Source: an uncultured Methanosarcinales archaeon
Lineage (GTDB): Archaea; Nanobdellota; Nanobdellia; Woesearchaeales; CAXGTL01
DNA length: 64,000 nt
Reading direction: 5' to 3'
NCBI GenBank assembly: GCA_964535955.1
Contig: CAZHVK010000004.1
Location: 6,222-70,221, forward strand
This document shows, in pieces, positions 3,383 to 53,782 of the stretch. The notes below the pieces were generated by a model that was not told the origin of the DNA, searched no databases, and saw nothing but the letters and a program-made list of their open reading frames with translations. Within the stretch, counting starts at the first letter, position 1, and each line of letters opens with the position of its first letter. The position numbers and the translations under genes were made by a program.

Positions 3383-3521
3383 ATATCCACCCCCAAACTA
3401 TACTAATTAGTAATACAAACATTTAAATATATATACTTTCTCCATATAGTATATATGCATTATATTGTTACTGAGGAGTATATGTCATTTTTATTTATAA
3501 ATATTTGTAAAATCTTGGTTG

Positions 3522-3627
3522 GTGCAACCCGCCAATTTGGCAAGTGAACCAATATTAAATTCGTAAGAAGATAGTAGGTGCCTCAATAATGTTCGCATCA
3601 AATGAGGCAGGTGAACGAGGGTTGCAC
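3522..3627 (+). ncRNA. GC-rich structured element, divergent member of the repeated multi-hairpin family (see 10296, 18925, 49714)
   Basis: 9-bp closing helix gtgcaaccc/gggttgcac enclosing hairpins gcc-aattt-ggc and tgcctca[17 nt]tgaggca, followed by ggtgaacga. GC about 50% against a roughly 30% background. Ends 30 nt before the ATG at 3657. Confidence 0.35.
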
Positions 3628-3656
3628 TAACGCAGTAAAATCTGGGGGGATTGAAT

Positions 3657-8533: not shown

Positions 8534-10228
8534 TCACTTATGAGTAAACCAGAACTTTATTTTTTGTTCTTTATCAGAAATTTCATCTAGCCTACAAAAA
8601 CCAAACCTTTCAAACTGAATAACATTATCAACAGATAAATCACGAATTCCTTGTTCAGCTATGCCATTAACAACAGAAGTATCAGGCATAAAAATCTCAA
8701 CATCAACATGCTCATAATTCTTAGGCAGCCAGTGTATGATCACACCTTTATTCTTAGCATCTTTAAAATCATGATGGTCAGTTGAAACAAATTCAAACCC
8801 ATCACCTTTCTTTATAAAATTAATACAATCCATTAACCTGTGCACCTTTCCAGGAACCAATCTATCATAATCTTGAGAAGAAATCAAAAACTCATAACCA
8901 GTTAAAAAATCACGACAACCTCGTTCTTTAAAACTAGGATGCAGACACATCTCAACATTTTGTTCAGGAGCATTTCTAATAATAATTTCTTTAGGATTAT
9001 AAATAAAAAAATATCTATTAGCAGACCTATCAAGCAATCTACGGTTAAACACACTAAGATCATCAAATGTTAACTCACTCTCAGTTTTATTTATGCCTGT
9101 GGACAAAACAAAGTCCCATATAGCTTTTGGTTGATAACCACGGCGACGTAGAGCAGCCAATGTTGTAAGTCTAGGATCATCCCAACCCATAAATTCACCA
9201 TCCTCAATACCTTGTCTAATTTTTCTTCCTGATGATGGCACACCTTTTAGATTAAACCTTGCAGCTTCATATGTTTTAGTAATTTTTAATCCTAATTTTT
9301 CCTGAATCCATCTTTGCAGTTCTGTCCTCATCTCAAATTCTTTTGTCCTTATTCTAATATCTATCTGTGAATATGAATCCATTATAGCACTTTGAAAATC
9401 ATAATTAGGCCACACCCTGTACTTTCTGCCTAGCCTAGGATGTTCTTTATCAATTATTCTAAAGATGATAGGATCTCTCATTGTAGAATTCTTATGACTA
9501 AGATCAATCTTAAATCTAAGAACTGCTTTTCCCTCATTATAGGTGGAAAATGTTTTCCAAAACTGAAGATTTTCATCAACACCTCTATCACGACATTTGC
9601 AAGGTTCTGATTTCATCCTATTTTCTTTTATTTTTTCTTGTTCACAAAAACACATATATGCTAAACCATTTTTAATCACTTGTTCTGCTTTTTTATAAAA
9701 CATCTCCATATGATCAGATGCATAGATCAGTTTATCCCATGACGCACCTAACCATTTATAATCATAAAGCATCATATCATAAAACTTTTTTATAACAGTA
9801 GCAGGATTGGTATCTTCAAACCTAAGAATAAATTTACCTTTATGTTTTTTAGCAAGTTCATAATTAACAGCCAGTGACTTTGCATGTCCAAGATGTGTAT
9901 ATTTTTCAGGCCCAGGTGGAAATCCAGTTGTTAAAGGACCTTCTGGTAAATTCAAAAACTCGAATATGTCTCTTTCTTTTTTCTCCTTCTTAACTAACAT
10001 TTCAGGTGCAATCTCTTGTAATTTAGCAATCTGATTATCAGGTTTCATAGAATTAACAGTTTTAACAATCCTATTAACTTCTTTACCAATCTCCTTCATC
10101 TGCTTCTTAAGTTCAGTATGATCACCAAGAAGTTTGCCAATTATAGCTCCAGGACTGGCTTTTCCTTTGAACTTGACAGCATTTTGTAATGCGAATTTCA
10201 ATATTAATTCTTCTATCTCTTTTTTCAT
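8534..10228 (-). CDS. gltX: Glutamyl-tRNA synthetase, archaeal/eukaryal type (non-discriminating GluRS likely)
   Basis: Class I catalytic core with HIGH-type motif YTHLGHAKS and GlxRS-like anticodon-binding beta-barrels. Start is the ATG at 10228 (MKKEIEELILKF, RBS AAAGGTG); the track's N-terminal extension to 10414 runs into the structured repeat element. Confidence 0.85.
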   Translation of the reverse strand: MKKEIEELILKFALQNAVKFKGKASPGAIIGKLLGDHTELKKQMKEIGKEVNRIVKTVNSMKPDNQIAKLQEIAPEMLVKKEKKERDIFEFLNLPEGPLTTGFPPGPEKYTHLGHAKSLAVNYELAKKHKGKFILRFEDTNPATVIKKFYDMMLYDYKWLGASWDKLIYASDHMEMFYKKAEQVIKNGLAYMCFCEQEKIKENRMKSEPCKCRDRGVDENLQFWKTFSTYNEGKAVLRFKIDLSHKNSTMRDPIIFRIIDKEHPRLGRKYRVWPNYDFQSAIMDSYSQIDIRIRTKEFEMRTELQRWIQEKLGLKITKTYEAARFNLKGVPSSGRKIRQGIEDGEFMGWDDPRLTTLAALRRRGYQPKAIWDFVLSTGINKTESELTFDDLSVFNRRLLDRSANRYFFIYNPKEIIIRNAPEQNVEMCLHPSFKERGCRDFLTGYEFLISSQDYDRLVPGKVHRLMDCINFIKKGDGFEFVSTDHHDFKDAKNKGVIIHWLPKNYEHVDVEIFMPDTSVVNGIAEQGIRDLSVDNVIQFERFGFCRLDEISDKEQKIKFWFTHK

Positions 10229-10295
10229 TACAACACCTTTTTTTATGATATTAAGAACAAAGAACCCTTTATATATAAATATTGCTACGGGAAGT

Positions 10296-10457
10296 ATGTG
10301 CATGGCGTCCGTCATAAATGCAGAGCATTTATGATCGTGCTCAGAAATGTTCCATTTCTGACATGTAAGACAAGTGAGCACCCCTCTGATTGTCAAAGGA
10401 TCAGGACTTTCCATACAAAACTATTGCACTTGGAAAGTGCGAACGAGCCATGCACAT
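10296..10457 (+). ncRNA. Structured repeat element copy 1 (162 nt): closing helix plus three hairpins; candidate novel ncRNA or structured MITE
   Basis: atgtgcatgg...ccatgcacat closing helix; hairpins tcataaatgc/gcatttatga, gtgctca[cagaaatg-ttc-catttctg]acatgtaagacaagtgagcac, ctttcca/tggaaag, then tgcgaacga. Near-identical architecture at 18925..19087. Confidence 0.5.
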
Positions 10458-10646
10458 GCTCTAACTCTCTAGAAAACACCTTAAAAACTCTCAAAATATA
10501 CTACCAATAAAGAGTAACATTTATAAAGGATAACCCATTCCCTACATAGTATAGCAAAAGAGGTTCTATGATATTAACATAATATATTTGAACATAATAT
10601 ATTAACACAATCAATAATCAATATAAACAGTGCGGGGTGCAATATA

Positions 10647-18903: not shown

Positions 18904-18924
18904 TTTTTCTTATTTTTATTTAAT

Positions 18925-19087
18925 ATGTGCATGGTGTCCTTCATAAATCGGAGATTTATGATCGTGCTCAGAAATGCTCTGCATTTCTGACATGTAAGAC
19001 CAGTGAGCACATCTCAGATTGTACAACGATCAGGGCTTTCCAAACAAGATAACTAATACATGGAAAGTGCGAACGAACCATGCACAT
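18925..19087 (+). ncRNA. Structured repeat element copy 2 (163 nt), 48 nt upstream of argS on the same strand
   Basis: Same closing helix atgtgcatgg/ccatgcacat and hairpins as copy 1. Loops differ, and one stem carries a compensatory swap (tcataaatc/gatttatga vs tcataaatgc/gcatttatga). Confidence 0.5.
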
Positions 19088-19135
19088 ACCTTTTTTAATA
19101 ACTTTTATAAACACCCAACACTTAACTATCTAAAT

Positions 19136-23221: not shown

Positions 23222-24412
23222 TTATTCAGTATAATGGTCTGTTTTTACTTTTTTACCATCTATATATATATTATTGATTACTTTGAGTCTATTTTGTTTA
23301 TTGCCTTTTTTACCTGGTTTTCCATTACCTTTGACTGGTTTGTCATCATCATCTCTTTCATAATCAGCAATATCTTCAATTGTTTTCCTTACTCCTTGTC
23401 TTGAATCACCAATCTTATCTATTTGGTCATTGTGAAAATCTAATGCACCATCTACTGATCTAAAGTATTTCTTAACTTTTCTTTCAACTTTTTTACCTTC
23501 TCTTGCTACATAAGCATGATCTTTGCTAGTTTCTTTATAACAACTGGTTGCATAACATGAAAGTCCTACTAATAATGCTAATGCTAGTAATCCTGTTCCT
23601 ATTTTTGCTGTTTTATACAAACAAGGATATTGATTTTTGATGTATGCAAAGAGTCCTTTGTTATCTTTATCTTTTTTATCATCATCATTAGGTCTATATG
23701 GTCCAATTGGTCCTGGTAGTCCTTGTTCTCCTTGAATTCCTTGTGGCCCTTGTATTCCTTTTTCTCCAGGCTCTCCGTCCTTACCATCTACTCCAGACTT
23801 ACCATCTACTCCTGGCTTTCCATCTACCCCATGCTTTCCATCTACTCCTTGTTTTCCATCTACCCCTGGCTTTCCATCTTCTCCATCTTTTCCATCTACT
23901 CCATGCTTTCCATCTATTCCAGGTTCCCCTTTTTCTCCAGGTACCCCAGGATTTCCATCTACTCCTGGCTTTCCATCTATTCCAGGCTCTCCATCTTTTC
24001 CATCTGCCCCAGACTTTCCATCTATTCCAGGCTCTCCGTCCTTTCCATCTACTCCAGGTTTTCCATCTTTTCCTTTTTTACCTCTTGGTCCTGTTTTTCC
24101 AGGCTCCCCTTGTTCTCCTTGTGCTCCTGGATCTCCTTTAATACCAATTCTATTAATACCATCTTTATACAAACAAACAACAATTGATCCTAATGAATCA
24201 CGAAGTAATTTTCTATCTTGTAATTTTTTTTCTTTAATAACTTCATTAGCAAAATATTCAGGAACATGTGCTCTTTGAAAGATATCTACTTCATCTTGAG
24301 TAAATAAACCACTATACTTTGGTTGTTTTGTTTGTTTTTTAGAATCATCAATCCATTTATCTACTTTATCATCTAATGCTATTTTAAAATATTCTATTGT
24401 ATCTTCAGTCAT
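23222..24412 (-). CDS. Collagen-like triple-helix repeat membrane protein
   Basis: 50 uninterrupted Gly-X-Y triplets (GIKGDPGAQGEQGEPGKTGPRGKKGKDGKPGVDG...GLPGPIGPY), then a TM helix (LLALALLVGL) and a C-terminal SCYATSCYKETSKDH...DSRQGVRKTIEDIADYER module. Confidence 0.65.
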   Translation of the reverse strand: MTEDTIEYFKIALDDKVDKWIDDSKKQTKQPKYSGLFTQDEVDIFQRAHVPEYFANEVIKEKKLQDRKLLRDSLGSIVVCLYKDGINRIGIKGDPGAQGEQGEPGKTGPRGKKGKDGKPGVDGKDGEPGIDGKSGADGKDGEPGIDGKPGVDGNPGVPGEKGEPGIDGKHGVDGKDGEDGKPGVDGKQGVDGKHGVDGKPGVDGKSGVDGKDGEPGEKGIQGPQGIQGEQGLPGPIGPYRPNDDDKKDKDNKGLFAYIKNQYPCLYKTAKIGTGLLALALLVGLSCYATSCYKETSKDHAYVAREGKKVERKVKKYFRSVDGALDFHNDQIDKIGDSRQGVRKTIEDIADYERDDDDKPVKGNGKPGKKGNKQNRLKVINNIYIDGKKVKTDHYTE

Positions 24413-26609: not shown

Positions 26610-27671
26610 ATGGCAAAAATTATAGCAATTGACGAAAAAATAATAAATAATCAATTTAATAGACAAATTGCTGAATGTATTGGATTATGGTTAGCAGAAG
26701 GAGATAATAAATGTACGAATGAAATTACATTCACTAATAATTGTTTTGATCTTATTAAACATTTTCATAATACAATAACTAAATTATTTAAAGAATATAA
26801 TTTCAATATAAGAATTTATGTTTATTCAAAAAATAAACTTAAAATAGACCTTCCTATAAAAGATTGCATAACTAAATATTATTCTGATAAACGGGCTAAA
26901 AAACCTTATTTTATTTGGAGAATTTGTTCTGTTAAACTGAACAGGAAATGGAAAAATATTGTTGAAGCATATAAGCCAAATTCAGAATTTTATCCTGAAA
27001 TCTTAAGAGGGTTTTTTGCTGGTGAGGGGAATATCAAGATAGGAAGCCACAATAGTAGAGTAATTAGGATAGCACAAAAAAACAGAGTAAAGTTCATAGA
27101 AAATATATTAGATTCCTTAAAAATAGAATACAAGTTTAAAAAAAATGAGAGAAGTTATTGCATATATCATAAGGATAATTGGGATATTTTTTCTAGATTT
27201 GGATTAGCAGATTTACATCCTATAAAAAAGAACAAATTCTATACTAATTATAATTTCAAAGAAGAACATTATAAACATAATTATCTTAAAAAAGAAGTAT
27301 TTAAAGAATTGGTTAGACCTCATACTACAATTGAATTATCTAAAAAATTTAATCGTTCACCAGCAAGAATCTGTGATATTGTAATAGAGCTTAAAAAAGA
27401 AGGTCTTATCACAAATTTTGGAGTCAAAAGTACTATGTATTGGATAAGAAATGATAAAAATTCTATAATTATATCACAAATTAAAGAGAAATATATAAAT
27501 ATAGTAAAAGAAAAACCATTATTAACATCTGAAATTGCTAAAACATTAAAAGTTGATTGGAAAAATGCATTCAAAAGATTGAAAGAACTTGAGAAATTAA
27601 AATTAGTACAACAAATTAACAAAAATGAATGGGGATATATTAAAACAAGTAAAAGGGTTATCGTAATATGA
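26610..27671 (+). CDS. Free-standing double-motif LAGLIDADG homing-endonuclease-like protein with two C-terminal winged-helix domains
   Basis: Two LAGLIDADG motifs: ECIGLWLAEGD and LRGFFAGEGNIK. C-terminal wHTH-like segments (TIELSKKFNRSPARICDIVIELKKEGLI; TSEIAKTLKVDWKNAFKRLKELEKLKLV). Stop overlaps the rnhB start (ATATGA). Confidence 0.65.
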   Translation: MAKIIAIDEKIINNQFNRQIAECIGLWLAEGDNKCTNEITFTNNCFDLIKHFHNTITKLFKEYNFNIRIYVYSKNKLKIDLPIKDCITKYYSDKRAKKPYFIWRICSVKLNRKWKNIVEAYKPNSEFYPEILRGFFAGEGNIKIGSHNSRVIRIAQKNRVKFIENILDSLKIEYKFKKNERSYCIYHKDNWDIFSRFGLADLHPIKKNKFYTNYNFKEEHYKHNYLKKEVFKELVRPHTTIELSKKFNRSPARICDIVIELKKEGLITNFGVKSTMYWIRNDKNSIIISQIKEKYINIVKEKPLLTSEIAKTLKVDWKNAFKRLKELEKLKLVQQINKNEWGYIKTSKRVIVI

Positions 27672-45595: not shown

Positions 45596-48076
45596 TTATT
45601 TTCCTCTACTATTCAGATCATCAATAAGGTCTACTTCATCTGGAAATTGATCTATATGTGTGTGTTTAGTAGAATCACCACCTAATAATGCGTCAAGTGG
45701 ATCTTGATCATCAATACCAAACAATTGATTCAATTTAGCTTCTTCATCTTGTGTATCTTGTTTTTTGTCTTGTTGTTCTTTTTTATCCAAACCAAAATAA
45801 TGATCTATCTTTTCTTGTGATGGTATATAATCAATTTCTTCTCCAGGCTCTCCTCCAGAAGCTTGAGCCAATTCTTCATTTATTTGATCAATTTCATCCG
45901 GTGTGTATTCTTCTTGTTTTGTTTCTGGCAAATACATTTCAGCTTCTTGTTCTAAGAGTTTTGTCATGCTTTGTTCTTTTTTATCTTCTATTTTCTTATC
46001 TCTTTGTCTTTGTTCAATTAGTTCTTGTGATAATGATTTATCTTTTATTATTGTTGCTGATTGTCTTTTCTTTATTATTAGACCACCCCTTCTCTTGTTT
46101 TCTCTTTCCTCTTCTTCATGCACTGCTTTACTTGACTCAGCAAACTGTTGAAGCAAACTTTGAAAATCATCATCACCATCATCCTCTTCTTCTCTTGCTA
46201 AAAGATTCCCAAAAGGAGAAGAACCTGGACTAAGACAAATAGAATGCAGATCATCTCCATAATCTTCATCATCACAAAAAACACTACTCAAAAAAATACC
46301 ACAAGGATCCATTTTTCCTGGTTCTGTTAATTGATCATCATCTAAACCAGACCCTCCAGACAACATATTTAAAAATTCATCTTCTTCATCAAGAGTAGGA
46401 AATTGTATTCCCTGCGGTTCATCATCACCACCATCATTCCCTTTAACCAATTTTTTATACTGATGCAGATCTTTTCTTAATGCATCCATTTTGTTCATTA
46501 TCTTCCTACTTAAGTGATTTTTTGCATTAATTTTCTTTAATTCACTTAATTCTTTACTCATCTTGTCTACATAATCAAACAAATTACTTTCTTTTGAAGT
46601 TACTCTAAAGCCAAAATTTTCATCAATAACAACTAATTCTCCTCTGTACAAAAGATTGTTTCCACACTTCACTAGAATACTTTGTCCAGCAAGTTGTTCT
46701 AATTTGAATTCAGAACCAATCTCTAGTTGTGAAGCTTGTTTTGAAGTCATATAAGTATGTCCAATTATTGCTCTTAATTCTGTACAAACTGAATTAATCC
46801 TGTCAACTGGTCTTAATTTATGGTCTCTGTCTCTAAAATTGACTATTTTTACTTTAAAATATTCATCTTCAACACCAAGCCTGCATTTACCAAGATACAG
46901 ACCACCTGCATAAATATCAAACTCTTCACCACACAATGTATCTAGTTCAATTACTGCTCCTGTACTAATCTCTTGAAGATCTTGCACAGGTCTTTCACTT
47001 CTTCCTGCTTCTATTTCTATTTTTAATGCTTGGCTACCAAATATTTCTTTATTTATCTTTGTCTTGGTCTCTCTACCATAAAACTTCTTTAAAAAAGGAT
47101 GTATTGGAAAACTCACATTTACAATTCCTTCTCTACAATCTGCTTTTTTAAAATATTCATTTGTTTTTTGTTTAAAGTATTCAATTTTGTCACTAAAAGT
47201 TAATTGTTTTCCTTCTTCATCGCTTTGCCTAATTCTATGTATACCATCACCTAATTTTTCTAAGAATATTCTTTCAATATGGGCAATAGTATCATAATCT
47301 TCCTTGATTTTATCCCAATTTTCTCTAAACACTTTTACAAACTGACAATTCAGCTCATATTCATCATCATCAAAACCAATTCCAACAAGAACCTTATCAA
47401 TATCATCATAATCATCAATCCCTTCTGCAGTTAATTTATCAAAATAATCAATACCAGAAGAATAATTAGTATGACACTGAAACTCATATGTCAATAATAA
47501 GACCATATCATTAGGATTATGTATCACCATCTTAGGATCTGTAAATAATTCAGACATTGTTACTTTTTCTTCTAATTTTATATTCTTAACCAATGTTTCT
47601 AAAAATGTTTTACATGTTTCTGATAATTTAGAATGCATATTTTCTAATCTTTTTGCACTTGTTTTTTCATCAAATGCATATAATGGTGAAAATGTATTTA
47701 CTAATCCTGCATTGAATTCTAAATAACCAGCATATTCTCCAATCTTAAATTCTTGTAGATAAGTAGGATTATTGATACTTCTTATAAATTCTTCATGTGT
47801 GATCTGATCAACACTTACTATGTCTAATCTAGAGACATAGACATTACTATGCTTATTTCTAAATTCTTTTAACATCTCTTTTTCAAAATATTCTCTACTC
47901 TTATTTGATAAATAATCAGATTGTCTTTTTGTAAAAAAATCAGGTCTTTTATAATCATAGATCTTTATTTTTCTATGTTTTACATCTTCTTTCATTTCTT
48001 CATCAGTCTTAAGATCACCTGTCTCAATTGCACTTAACAAAGCATCTATCTCATCTTGACATAGAATTTCAACCAT
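45596..48076 (-). CDS. FliM/FliY-like switch protein: CheY-binding N-terminal peptide plus two FliN/SpoA domains and a long acidic tail
   Basis: N-terminus MVEILCQDEIDALLSAIETGD matches the bacterial FliM/FliY LSQ(D/E)EIDALL peptide. SpoA domains: AVIELDTLCGEEFDIYAGGLYLGKCRLG and LEQLAGQSILVKCGNNLLYRGELVVIDENFGFRVT (compare T. maritima FliN ARGEVVVVDENFGVRIT). Confidence 0.7.
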   Translation of the reverse strand: MVEILCQDEIDALLSAIETGDLKTDEEMKEDVKHRKIKIYDYKRPDFFTKRQSDYLSNKSREYFEKEMLKEFRNKHSNVYVSRLDIVSVDQITHEEFIRSINNPTYLQEFKIGEYAGYLEFNAGLVNTFSPLYAFDEKTSAKRLENMHSKLSETCKTFLETLVKNIKLEEKVTMSELFTDPKMVIHNPNDMVLLLTYEFQCHTNYSSGIDYFDKLTAEGIDDYDDIDKVLVGIGFDDDEYELNCQFVKVFRENWDKIKEDYDTIAHIERIFLEKLGDGIHRIRQSDEEGKQLTFSDKIEYFKQKTNEYFKKADCREGIVNVSFPIHPFLKKFYGRETKTKINKEIFGSQALKIEIEAGRSERPVQDLQEISTGAVIELDTLCGEEFDIYAGGLYLGKCRLGVEDEYFKVKIVNFRDRDHKLRPVDRINSVCTELRAIIGHTYMTSKQASQLEIGSEFKLEQLAGQSILVKCGNNLLYRGELVVIDENFGFRVTSKESNLFDYVDKMSKELSELKKINAKNHLSRKIMNKMDALRKDLHQYKKLVKGNDGGDDEPQGIQFPTLDEEDEFLNMLSGGSGLDDDQLTEPGKMDPCGIFLSSVFCDDEDYGDDLHSICLSPGSSPFGNLLAREEEDDGDDDFQSLLQQFAESSKAVHEEEERENKRRGGLIIKKRQSATIIKDKSLSQELIEQRQRDKKIEDKKEQSMTKLLEQEAEMYLPETKQEEYTPDEIDQINEELAQASGGEPGEEIDYIPSQEKIDHYFGLDKKEQQDKKQDTQDEEAKLNQLFGIDDQDPLDALLGGDSTKHTHIDQFPDEVDLIDDLNSRGK

Positions 48077-49663: not shown

Positions 49664-49713
49664 ATGTTTATTTAATATTATTAGTATATATAAATGTTAC
49701 TATGGTGTGTAGT

Positions 49714-49823
49714 ATGTGTATGGTGTCTGTAAGACTAGTGAGTACCCACATAAATCGTAAGACTACTTGGGCTTTCAATACAATCAGAATAATACATTGA
49801 AAGTACGAACGAACCATACACAT
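49714..49823 (+). ncRNA. Structured repeat element copy 3 (110 nt, 5'-truncated variant)
   Basis: Closing helix atgtgtatgg/ccatacacat (two C-G to T-A compensatory pairs relative to copies 1 and 2); retains gtaagactagtgag, hairpin ctttcaat/attgaaag and gtacgaacgaacc. Confidence 0.4.
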
Positions 49824-49933
49824 ACTGTGTATACATATAATAAATACATGTAGAAACATTTAAATAAAACCTAAAGCCTAAACAAACAATAACAATATAA
49901 AATCATTATAAAACCAACAAAAGGTGATAAACT

Positions 49934-50527: not shown

Positions 50528-53782
<3,255 letters not shown>

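Follow-up and report, generated by a model that had tools for sequence, protein, structure and literature searches.

Small structured insertion elements of DPANN archaea that may combine mobility with a selected fold

Introduction

What kind of genetic element recurs, elaborately folded and on one strand, in a genome fragment of an uncultured archaeon? The stretch analysed here, called the window, comprises 64 kb of contig CAZHVK010000004.1 (assembly GCA_964535955.1), in which an earlier note had pointed out two ~160-nt copies of a multi-hairpin element and two further relatives. A new small-RNA family, a cis-acting leader, a ribozyme-like element and a structured MITE (miniature inverted-repeat transposable element) were all proposed as candidate identities. 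The explanation that we favour, with about even confidence, is a structured mobile element of MITE-like, non-autonomous kind, with selection acting on its folded single strand, which is probably RNA. Such an element would be neither a fixed small-RNA gene nor a decaying repeat, but a hybrid of mobility and a selected fold.

Results

Four copies in the window

The copies in the window are named c1 to c4, and the loci of relatives are labelled L001, L002 and so on. A covariance model made from related sequences and run with all filters off found exactly four copies, all on the plus strand, with scores of 112 bits for c3 (the best in the window), 76 for c4, 68 for c2 and 53 for c1. The sequences stand where they had been placed before. 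The closing-helix motif ATGTGYATGG occurs six times in the window, against 0.3 occurrences expected, and is confined to the four copies. Identity between c1 (10296-10457) and c2 (18925-19087) is ~85%, and the z-scores of folding relative to shuffled sequence are -6.75 (c1), -5.63 (c2) and -6.1 (c4).

All aligned copies, in the window and elsewhere, share one architecture, in which helices P1, P2 and P3 join in a three-way junction and P3 bears the hairpins P4 and P5. The parts of the window copies are as follows.

3507..3515, plus strand: left 9-nt copy of the c4 target-site duplication, GTAAAATCT
3516..3634, plus strand: c4, divergent; P1 and P2 as in L005, P3 and P5 rebuilt with compensating changes
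3635..3643, plus strand: right 9-nt copy of the c4 target-site duplication, GTAAAATCT
10268..10279, plus strand: TATA-like box TTTATATATAAA, 14-17 nt 5' of c1
10293..10460, plus strand: whole of c1, a ~110-nt unit plus a nested module; P1 extends to 14 bp, AGTATGTGCATGGC/GCCATGCACATGCT, including one U.G pair
10296..10306, plus strand: c1 P1 5' arm ATGTGCATGGC, the left terminal inverted repeat, pairing with 10447-10457
10307..10371, plus strand: c1 P2, GTC 10307-10309 pairing with GAC 10369-10371, from comparison with c3 and 17 other copies
10311..10364, plus strand: c1 nested module of two hairpins (A at 10312-10334, B at 10341-10361) with the linker TCGTGC at 10335-10340 between them; c3, c4 and most relatives lack it
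10365-10368, plus strand: GTAA, remnant of the c1 P2 loop, which the module breaks up
10374..10380, plus strand: c1 P3 5' strand GU-GA-GCA; G10376 and A10377 in tandem G.A pairs with G10441 and A10442
10382..10405, plus strand: c1 P4 hairpin region with tip UU-GUCA-AA (UC-GUAA-GA or UU-GUAA-AA in most copies)
10407..10437, plus strand: c1 P5 hairpin, CTTTCCA 10407-10413 pairing with TGGAAAG 10431-10437, with a variable loop
10438..10446, plus strand: c1 P3 3' strand UGC-GA-AC and the invariant junction GA
10447..10457, plus strand: c1 P1 3' arm GCCATGCACAT, the right terminal inverted repeat
18924..19088, plus strand: c2, built as c1 including the module; downstream come a T6 run and, after it, the argS promoter
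49705-49712 and 49825-49832: imperfect direct repeats flanking c3, GTGTGTAG and CTGTGTAT
49713..49824, plus strand: c3, a ~110-nt form without the module

Re-reading the copies confirmed much of what the earlier note had described and altered some of it. c1 and c2 both have the closing helix ATGTGCATGG/CCATGCACAT; its true length is 11-14 bp, and position 11 covaries (C-G in c1, U-A in c2). The hairpins TCATAAATGC/GCATTTATGA, CAGAAATG/CATTTCTG and CTTTCCA/TGGAAAG were all found. The copy at 49714 had been taken for a truncated one, which is wrong: c3 represents the ~110-nt form common to 17 of the 21 copies analysed, and since nearly all copies measure 107-121 nt as c3 does, this form is basic and c1 and c2 depart from it. 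For hairpin A, the proposed G-C to C-G swap has an equally valid reading, a stem with one pair fewer, since c2 has 2 nt fewer at this place; other genomes contain both forms. Conserved stretches described as single-stranded consist mostly of both P3 strands and the junction nucleotides, and the GGAAAG stretch, rightly held to resemble RNase P CR-I only superficially, is the 3' strand of P5, which in c4 is wholly replaced with compensating changes. As noted before, all four copies lie 5' of plus-strand genes, at distances of 29, 190, 49 and 112 nt, c4 being the one 29 nt before a start codon.

The family in other genomes

The pattern AGTGAGYAC-N35-65-GAAAGTRCGAACGA was scanned over one genome per GTDB species. 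It matched 15 loci in four metagenome-assembled genomes (MAGs) additional to the window's own genome: five in CAZYAB01 (L001, L002, L004, L010, L013), five in CAYWFN01 (L005, L009, L011, L012, L015), four in CAXGTL01, a Woesearchaeota genome from Tara Oceans, and one in JAYENX01, a Nanoarchaeota genome. The covariance model of the family, whose construction had been suggested in the earlier note, recovered copies in these related DPANN genomes and added a second L007 copy, as well as a 226-nt copy and a deleted remnant in L034. In total, 21 non-redundant copies from five genomes were analysed, 4 in the window and 17 elsewhere, with lengths of 107-226 bp.

The arginyl-tRNA synthetase (ArgRS) of the window is closest to Woesearchaeota and Nanoarchaeota proteins. 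Some 108 kb of sequence representing eight other Woesearchaeota relatives, whose ArgRS is 53-54% identical, contained no canonical copy, and one of the eight, L025, holds only a distant variant. Viral contigs gave no match to the element, so a viral origin is unsupported. From metagenomes, a scan yielded nothing beyond duplicates of a single Tara Oceans population and two chance GC-rich matches. The absence of canonical copies from the ~108 kb of relatives and from the viral contigs indicates that the family is confined to a narrow lineage.

As the earlier note had surmised, the family is absent from Rfam. At the gathering threshold, Rfam 15 gave no matches on the window with its copies or on L003, L034, L007 and L025; at E up to 10, chance-level matches alone appeared, on c1, c3, c4 and the type-2 element described below. 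ARAGORN detected no tRNA and no tmRNA in the window. Judged against Rfam 15 and by their distribution in these sequences, these small non-coding insertion elements make up an undescribed family, restricted to a narrow lineage and present in a few DPANN genomes.

Two observations concern the host genomes. CAZYAB01 and CAYWFN01 are titled 'uncultured Methanosarcinales archaeon' and carry this DPANN-type element on AT-rich contigs; their label may be wrong. The contig of the closest relative, L024 (ArgRS 72% identical), starts with GCACAT ~140 nt 5' of the probable argS start, which may, on weak evidence, mark an assembly break inside an element copy.

A conserved fold

P1, the closing helix, has 10-16 bp and is perfect or near-perfect in 18 of the 21 copies. 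P2 directly adjoins it as a 4-bp hairpin that reads GCCU-GUUA-AGGC, GCCA-GUUU-GGC or, as in c3, GUCU-GUA-AGAC. Two junction nucleotides, N and then A, lead into P3 (GU-GA-GCAC / GUGC-GA-AC), in which opposed GA dinucleotides form tandem G.A pairs of the sheared type. Inside P3 lie an invariant unpaired C, P4 with a GNRA-type cap (UC-GUAA-GA or UU-GUAA-AA), and P5 (CUUUCNAU/AUNGAAAG), which has a variable loop of 15-19 nt and a 3' strand that continues directly into that of P3. The return junction to P1 is an invariant GA, and the string GAACGA is unchanged in all copies.

That stems are kept while their sequences change had been proposed from two copies; the claim is borne out with support far beyond these. 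RNAalifold returned the same structure with 27 pairs, 17 of them showing compensatory changes. In a curated 19-sequence alignment, 96.2% of cells are paired and double changes occur in 16 of 29 pairs; none of 500 shuffled controls reached the observed pairing values, and sliding the partners by 1-3 columns lowered pairing to 22-48%. All ten P1 columns show double changes across the family. P3 pairs 29/98 and 30/97 covary, the GA/GA dinucleotides being invariant, and L007b has a G-C pair of P3 changed to A-U. The pair at the P4 tip covaries as well (U-A 10, C-G 5, G-C 2). In c4, all seven P5 pairs (UGCCUCA/UGAGGCA) and three P3 pairs have been replaced compensatorily, and its minimum-energy fold reproduces the family model exactly, including the GNRA-capped hairpin. 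Copies that differ by uncompensated mutations alone, which would have marked a plain repeat, are not what was found.

The tandem G.A pairs and the GNRA loop are possible on the plus strand only. G.U pairs number 8 versus 4 A.C pairs, and all four A.C pairs fall in one degenerate copy. These features weakly favour the plus strand as the folded strand. An extension of P1 in c3 with five G.U pairs was dropped as strand evidence, being an imperfect (TG)n-like direct repeat.

The G.A pairs also invite comparison with k-turns and with G.A motifs of the loop-E type. In the k-junction, the non-bulged strand bears an additional helix, stacked on the C helix (PMC10573300). The family likewise has tandem G.A/A.G pairs beside a three-way junction, with P1 and P2 contiguous. 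Unlike in the k-junction, its G.A pairs may be parted from the junction by two Watson-Crick pairs (G-C, U-A), the putative loop comprises 4 nt, and 4 nt (ACGA) stand between A1n and the third helix. The junction of the family may be k-junction-like, with a spacing unlike that of known examples.

Hammerhead and twister motifs are often carried by mobile repeats, and a self-cleaving or otherwise catalytic RNA, with the invariant three-way junction as its active site, would show the variable stems around an invariant junction and the multi-copy, context-free distribution seen here. Moreover, UGA-(helix)-GAA is identical to domain 2 of the hammerhead core. However, no ribozyme family of Rfam gave a match, even with E allowed up to 10. 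Where the hammerhead has C-U-G-A-U-G-A, the junction has C-N-A-G-U-G-A, with the essential G5 and A6 swapped, and no unpaired nucleotide stands between P1 and P2 at the place of the cleavage site. From its sequence, a catalytic role of the junction seems very doubtful, and the hammerhead itself was rejected on the same grounds (junction C-N-A-G-U-G-A...G-A-A-C-G-A, no P1-P2 nucleotide, no Rfam match).

Other known structures were also tried and rejected. An archaeal C/D box small RNA does not fit a conserved core that has neither a C box (RUGAUGA) nor a D box (CUGA). In 5S rRNA terms, the second arm is a 12-nt hairpin, the third arm branches and P1 varies within one genome; RF00001 did not match at E up to 10. 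Integron attC sites are unlike the family in their ends (R''/R' core sites, RYYYAAC...GTTRRRY), the copies lie 7-30 kb apart among housekeeping genes, and no integrase was found in the window. Finally, the P5 hairpin CUUUCAAU...AUUGAAAG (window 49772-49803 and equivalents) scored weakly, below threshold, against CRISPR direct repeats in Rfam, since AUUGAAAG is identical to the 8-nt handle common in CRISPR RNAs. This likeness was judged to be chance, many copies having AUGGAAAG or AUAGAAAG instead.

Flanking duplications

Exact direct repeats of at least 8 nt lie at the outer P1 ends of nine of the 21 copies.

c4: GTAAAATCT
L003: GAAAATTAA
L005: TTCTAAAAAA
L012: CCAAAAACTA
L002: ACCAAAAC
L034b: CTATGTTTTG
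L014: CATAACAA
L006: TTAAAAAA
L009: TAAAATAAAA

Such repeats occurred at 1.4% of random pairs of window positions, and at 2.4% when the left flank of one copy was combined with the right flank of another, which keeps the composition (binomial P ~6e-10). When 9-mers with at most one mismatch were counted, 11 of the 21 copies had them, compared with 10% in the control. The duplications measure 8-10 nt (one reads as 14) and lie in A-rich or A/T-rich target DNA. Since they differ from copy to copy, they are target-site duplications rather than attachment sites, and since about half of the copies bear one immediately outside P1, the copies arrived by insertion. Target-site duplications had been named as the test of a structured MITE, and they were found. 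A TA duplication of the IS630/Tc1 kind was rejected: the flanking TA of class A copies belongs to P1, and the other classes lack it.

Copies occupy non-orthologous sites between genomes, and an all-against-all BLASTP of 119 flanking open reading frames (ORFs) revealed no gene family that recurs beside the elements. At one orthologous site, CAZYAB01 (L004) carries a type-1 element and CAXGTL01 (L008) a type-2-like one, both between CT(G/A)AAAAAA and C(T/C)AAAAAAA and within flanks that are 77-78% identical. The sequences suggest either a hot spot hit twice or a replacement.

The family shares several traits with MITEs: a length below ~500 bp, multiple copies, terminal inverted repeats, and target-site duplications in 9 of 21 copies. 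It has no coding capacity, its reading frames being unconserved and shifted by a 1-nt indel in the P2 loop. What it lacks is a set of conserved terminal repeats shared with an autonomous insertion sequence: five or more unrelated P1 sequences were counted, and no such partner appeared in 44 loci. At least five different P1 sequences (12-17 nt per arm) are associated with duplications: those of c4 and L005; of L003, L012, L002, L034b and L014; of L006; of L009; and of L004. In known MITEs conservation lies in the terminal repeats, these being what the transposase binds, whereas the interior is subject to drift. The present family turns this around, with its greatest variation in the terminal repeats and its strongest conservation inside. 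The copies share no outermost dinucleotide, the conserved sub-terminal blocks GCCUGUUAAGGCCAGUGAG (left) and GAAAGUGCGAACGA (right) are not inverted copies of each other, and the two arms within each copy are still complementary. With a free P1 sequence, no terminal dinucleotide and unlike sub-terminal blocks, the family is a poor fit to a classical DDE-type MITE. Element ends that coincide with helix ends, whatever their sequence, are expected if the substrate is a folded single strand.

A MITE acting purely at the DNA level must nevertheless be weighed. Its transposase would come from elsewhere, its transcript would have no role, and the stem changes would have arisen by templated correction or from a few master copies. 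The narrow range of duplication lengths (8-10 bp), the terminal inverted repeats, the internally deleted and nested derivatives and the equal folding of both strands all agree with it, and MITE-rich Woesearchaea genomes are on record (PMC11602168). Against it stand the variable ends with a conserved interior and without a conserved terminal dinucleotide, the reverse of the known pattern, and sub-terminal blocks that are not inverted copies, as the binding sites of one transposase would be. Correction from arm to arm would leave the invariant unpaired junction, the tandem G.A pairs and the GNRA loop unexplained, and the 44 loci contain no partner insertion sequence. We regard this explanation as unlikely and give it roughly half the credence of the favoured one.

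Insertion sites and neighbouring genes

A TATA-like box ends 3-7 nt 5' of the duplication in 9-10 of the 11 copies with duplications. Among all 21 copies, ~10 have a TATA-like match that starts 16-28 nt before P1, compared with 8.7% of random intergenic positions (either orientation). These insertion sites lie 12-20 nt downstream of TATA boxes, with the element in sense to the promoter, and because the duplication stands between box and element, the box is the host's and is not carried by the element. Copies without a TATA box mostly follow a same-strand stop codon by 5-22 nt (c2, L001, L009, L013); others stand between convergent genes at a distance of 5-7 nt (L005, L006) or precede a start codon (L015 by 11 nt, c4 by 29 nt). 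Judging from these positions, nearly every copy appears to be placed for sense transcription, and transcription from the adjacent host promoter is likely.

An alternative is that of ordinary trans-acting small-RNA genes, which would encode a stable RNA of ribonucleoprotein type, perhaps with an L7Ae-like protein at the G.A motif, spread by duplication and processed from any transcript in which they lie, like archaeal C/D box small RNAs. The strong covariation and invariant core, the enrichment of upstream TATA boxes, the T-runs after some copies (c2, a type-2 copy), the P1 sequence classes shared between genomes and a distant variant with the same architecture in GCA_018263355 would all suit such genes. 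However, the position of the duplications between TATA box and element puts the promoter outside the duplicated unit and weakens the idea that the copies own it. Eight relatives (~108 kb) without a canonical copy argue against a conserved housekeeping RNA, and remnants and nested insertions occur. We hold small-RNA genes to be a fairly improbable explanation, one that is not fully exclusive of a mobile element, since a mobile element can be domesticated.

A same-strand gene lies downstream of all four window copies and of 14 of 18 scorable copies; the remaining four face a convergent gene. The downstream genes are unrelated. A PhoU/AbrB regulator, ArgRS and a DUF4190 membrane protein are Pfam-confirmed, and genes named by eye comprise an MTA phosphorylase-like, a signal peptidase-like and a prefoldin-like protein and several helix-turn-helix proteins. 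These neighbours bear on a riboswitch or cis-regulatory 5' leader of the downstream gene, one of the identities proposed earlier. The frequency of same-strand genes, the short distances at c4 and L015 (29 and 11 nt) and an aptamer-like architecture with a variable P1 speak for it. Against it, the downstream genes have no common theme, four are convergent, two of these with a 5-7-nt spacer (L005, L006), and a T6 run and a separate TATA box lie between c2 and argS. A leader of argS in particular, suggested by c2 and by the L025 variant, was rejected: seven further relatives have argS spacers of 19-78 nt, too short for the element, and carry none. The leader is an explanation close to refuted.

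Two gene calls touch on the elements. A 626-aa minus-strand ORF (8534-10414) overlaps c1, the likely start of this GlnRS/GluRS-type gene being at 10228, and the ArgRS call of L024 (L024:38-1849, 603 aa) is 36 aa longer than that of the window. Elements of this kind can distort the annotation of start codons.

Nested module and related elements

Compared with c3, c1 and c2 have ~54 nt extra inside the P2 loop. UCGUGC links the two hairpins of this insert, which resemble each other (UCANAAAUG...CAUUUNUGA). This module recurs in the P4 region of the long copy L034:1975-2200 and inside a type-2 element in L003, and in ~400 kb of sequence examined it was found only inside such elements. On this distribution, the module is best described as a nested insertion or movable expansion outside the core. 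Its reading as an archaeal bulge-helix-bulge intron was rejected, since by eye neither junction has a 3-4-3 motif.

The helix GTGCTCA/TGAGCAC that the earlier note had assigned to c1 and c2 is present, but it joins the module linker to the 5' strand of P3 and is mutually exclusive with the P3 conserved in the family. In c1, the linker GUGCUCA (10337-10343) is perfectly complementary to UGAGCAC (10375-10381). In L034b (2100-2110 with ~2004-2012), a linker UACUCA stands opposite UGAGUA, which amounts to one compensatory change. This alternative pairing could be a structural switch or a coincidence.

Degraded and divergent forms exist as well. L034:1866-1910 is an internally deleted remnant (P1-P2-CAGUAAGC-P1') that kept both arms and P2 and lost P3-P5; it lies 65 nt upstream of the 226-nt copy, which is swollen by several nested insertions. 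The L025 variant (GCA_018263355, 9805-9944), to which the covariance model is blind, lies 5' of argS. It has a P1 of GUACCUCC/GGAGGUAC, no P2, a P5-like hairpin, a P3 with three consecutive tandem G.A motifs (AG-GUGAAC-GAGG / CCGA-GUGAAC-AG) and a P4 tip, AUCGUAAGAAGUAGAUAGG, nearly identical to that of c4.

A second, multi-copy type of ~120 nt, termed type 2, was found in the Tara Woesearchaeota genome.

L003:6395-6515, minus strand: type-2 element
L003:2085-2310, minus strand: type-2 element
L008:1517-1620, plus strand: type-2 element

Type-2 elements have a P1 of AGCUUUGUAG/CUACAAAGCU, an inner helix UGCUGCC/GGCAGCA and, adjoining the 3' arm, a 3' hairpin GCGAAC-GUUA-GUGAGU, which is the same tandem G.A helix closed by GUUA. 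At L003 6395-6515 the setting is that of type 1, with a TATA box upstream, a spacer and a duplication, and a T-run follows downstream. One type-2 copy bears the two-hairpin module. The G.A helix beside the 3' arm is the sole feature common to type 1, type 2 and the L025 variant, which makes it a candidate recognition site.

Other features of the window

The window is housekeeping DNA, with genes for exosome subunits, SBDS, the proteasome alpha subunit, Rpp14, GlnRS/GluRS-type and ArgRS synthetases, FtsY, RNase HII and gyrase B. Four further genes deserve mention. The JGI contigs of the same population apparently break near the collagen-repeat gene.

23222-24412, minus strand: 396-aa protein with collagen triple-helix repeats, arising from a 9/18-nt tandem array (23694-24109)
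26610-27671, plus strand: 353-aa protein with a LAGLIDADG-like domain and TrmB/MarR-type winged-helix domains
45596-48076, minus strand: 826-aa protein bearing the C-terminal domains of FliM and FliN, from the bacterial flagellar switch, unexpected in an archaeon
50528-53779, minus strand: gyrase B gene interrupted by an intein (Pfam Intein_splicing, 1083-aa product, L043 annotation)

Discussion

A family whose copies are insertions and whose fold is kept by compensation would be explained as follows by a structured, non-autonomous mobile element. A copy would insert shortly behind a host TATA box, in sense orientation, and be transcribed from that host promoter or by read-through. The folded single strand, most likely RNA, would be what is selected, and the copying machinery would probably recognise the folded core and the helix-defined ends rather than a fixed terminal sequence. 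The intermediate may be an RNA trimmed to the terminal helix and copied back into DNA, in the manner of short interspersed nuclear elements (SINEs), or a single-stranded DNA.

Several points weigh against this explanation. The sample is small, 21 non-redundant copies from five genomes. A scan of 27 window proteins revealed no transposase, integrase or reverse transcriptase, and no autonomous element with shared ends emerged, the P1 motif being confined to the elements in the 44 loci. Clean empty sites were not found; around c1 no duplication can be recognised, and c2 and c3 have imperfect ones. As to the promoters, a TATA centre ~18-24 nt from P1 would set the start of transcription a few nucleotides inside P1, and the TATA box of L002, 27 nt from the start codon of a divergent neighbour, may be that gene's promoter. 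As to the RNA strand, folding energies of the two strands give similar z-scores and do not discriminate between them. Compensatory-looking changes in inverted repeats can also stem from DNA-level templated correction of quasi-palindromes.

The nearest described counterparts of the family are structured MITE-like repeats of bacteria, among them ERIC/IRU, Correia/NEMIS, RUP and BOX (~100-170 bp). A close parallel is bcr1 of the Bacillus cereus group, a mobile, transcribed repeat of ~155 bp with 5-bp direct repeats, in which compensatory changes keep an RNA structure (PMC3184786). Like the present family, it is short, non-coding, multi-copy and intergenic, is flanked by direct repeats and has a distribution that is not conserved between relatives (PMC3184786). 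The bacterial bcr1 is co-transcribed with its neighbours. It differs in the length of its direct repeats (5 bp versus 8-10 in the DPANN family) and in its cruciform-like pair of stem-loops, compared with a branched fold that has an invariant three-way junction, tandem G.A pairs and a GNRA cap. Unlike in bcr1 and its kin, the terminal repeats of the DPANN family vary freely and its sites lie at a fixed short distance from TATA boxes.

Among archaea, SM1-SM4 of Sulfolobus are examples of MITEs, and archaeal MITEs have so far been treated as simple derivatives of insertion sequences. In a 2024 census of 8220 archaeal genomes, a Woesearchaea genome ranked among the MITE-densest archaea (PMC11602168). 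Archaeal MITEs resemble the family in being non-autonomous, in combining terminal inverted repeats with target-site duplications and in their abundance in some DPANN genomes (PMC11602168). They differ in that their terminal repeats are shared with identifiable insertion sequences and their interior is variable; the family has no known partner and its conservation is inverted.

SINEs such as Alu are small, structured, RNA-derived and non-coding, and compensatory changes keep their structure, since it is the folded RNA that is copied. The family resembles them, by analogy and without membership, in its slightly variable duplications (8-10 nt, one of 14) and A-rich targets. Unlike SINEs, it lacks a 3' tail, poly(A) or otherwise, as well as an internal promoter and 5'-truncated copies, and no reverse transcriptase is known to partner it, none having turned up among the 27 window proteins. 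We know of no precedent in archaea for RNA-mediated transposition of the SINE type. A bolder proposal, which we consider improbable, is that the family is a prokaryotic counterpart of SINEs: a structured RNA with helix-defined ends, reverse-transcribed in trans or moved through a fold-recognised intermediate, would be inserted beside TATA boxes bound by TBP and TFB, which would guarantee transcription from a host promoter. Targeting beside TATA boxes would be analogous to the integration of Ty3 at RNA polymerase III start sites.

To our knowledge, few structured non-coding elements have been described from DPANN archaea. The family brings three traits together: a branched fold with tertiary motifs of RNA type kept by compensation, terminal repeats that pair whatever their sequence, and insertion a fixed, short way behind TATA boxes. 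In practice, the covariance model lets annotators mask ~110-nt repeats that break assemblies and add artificial N-terminal extensions. The family would also offer a natural probe of promoter architecture in organisms not yet cultured, and if the fold is what the mobilising machinery reads, it would represent a transposition mechanism new to archaea.

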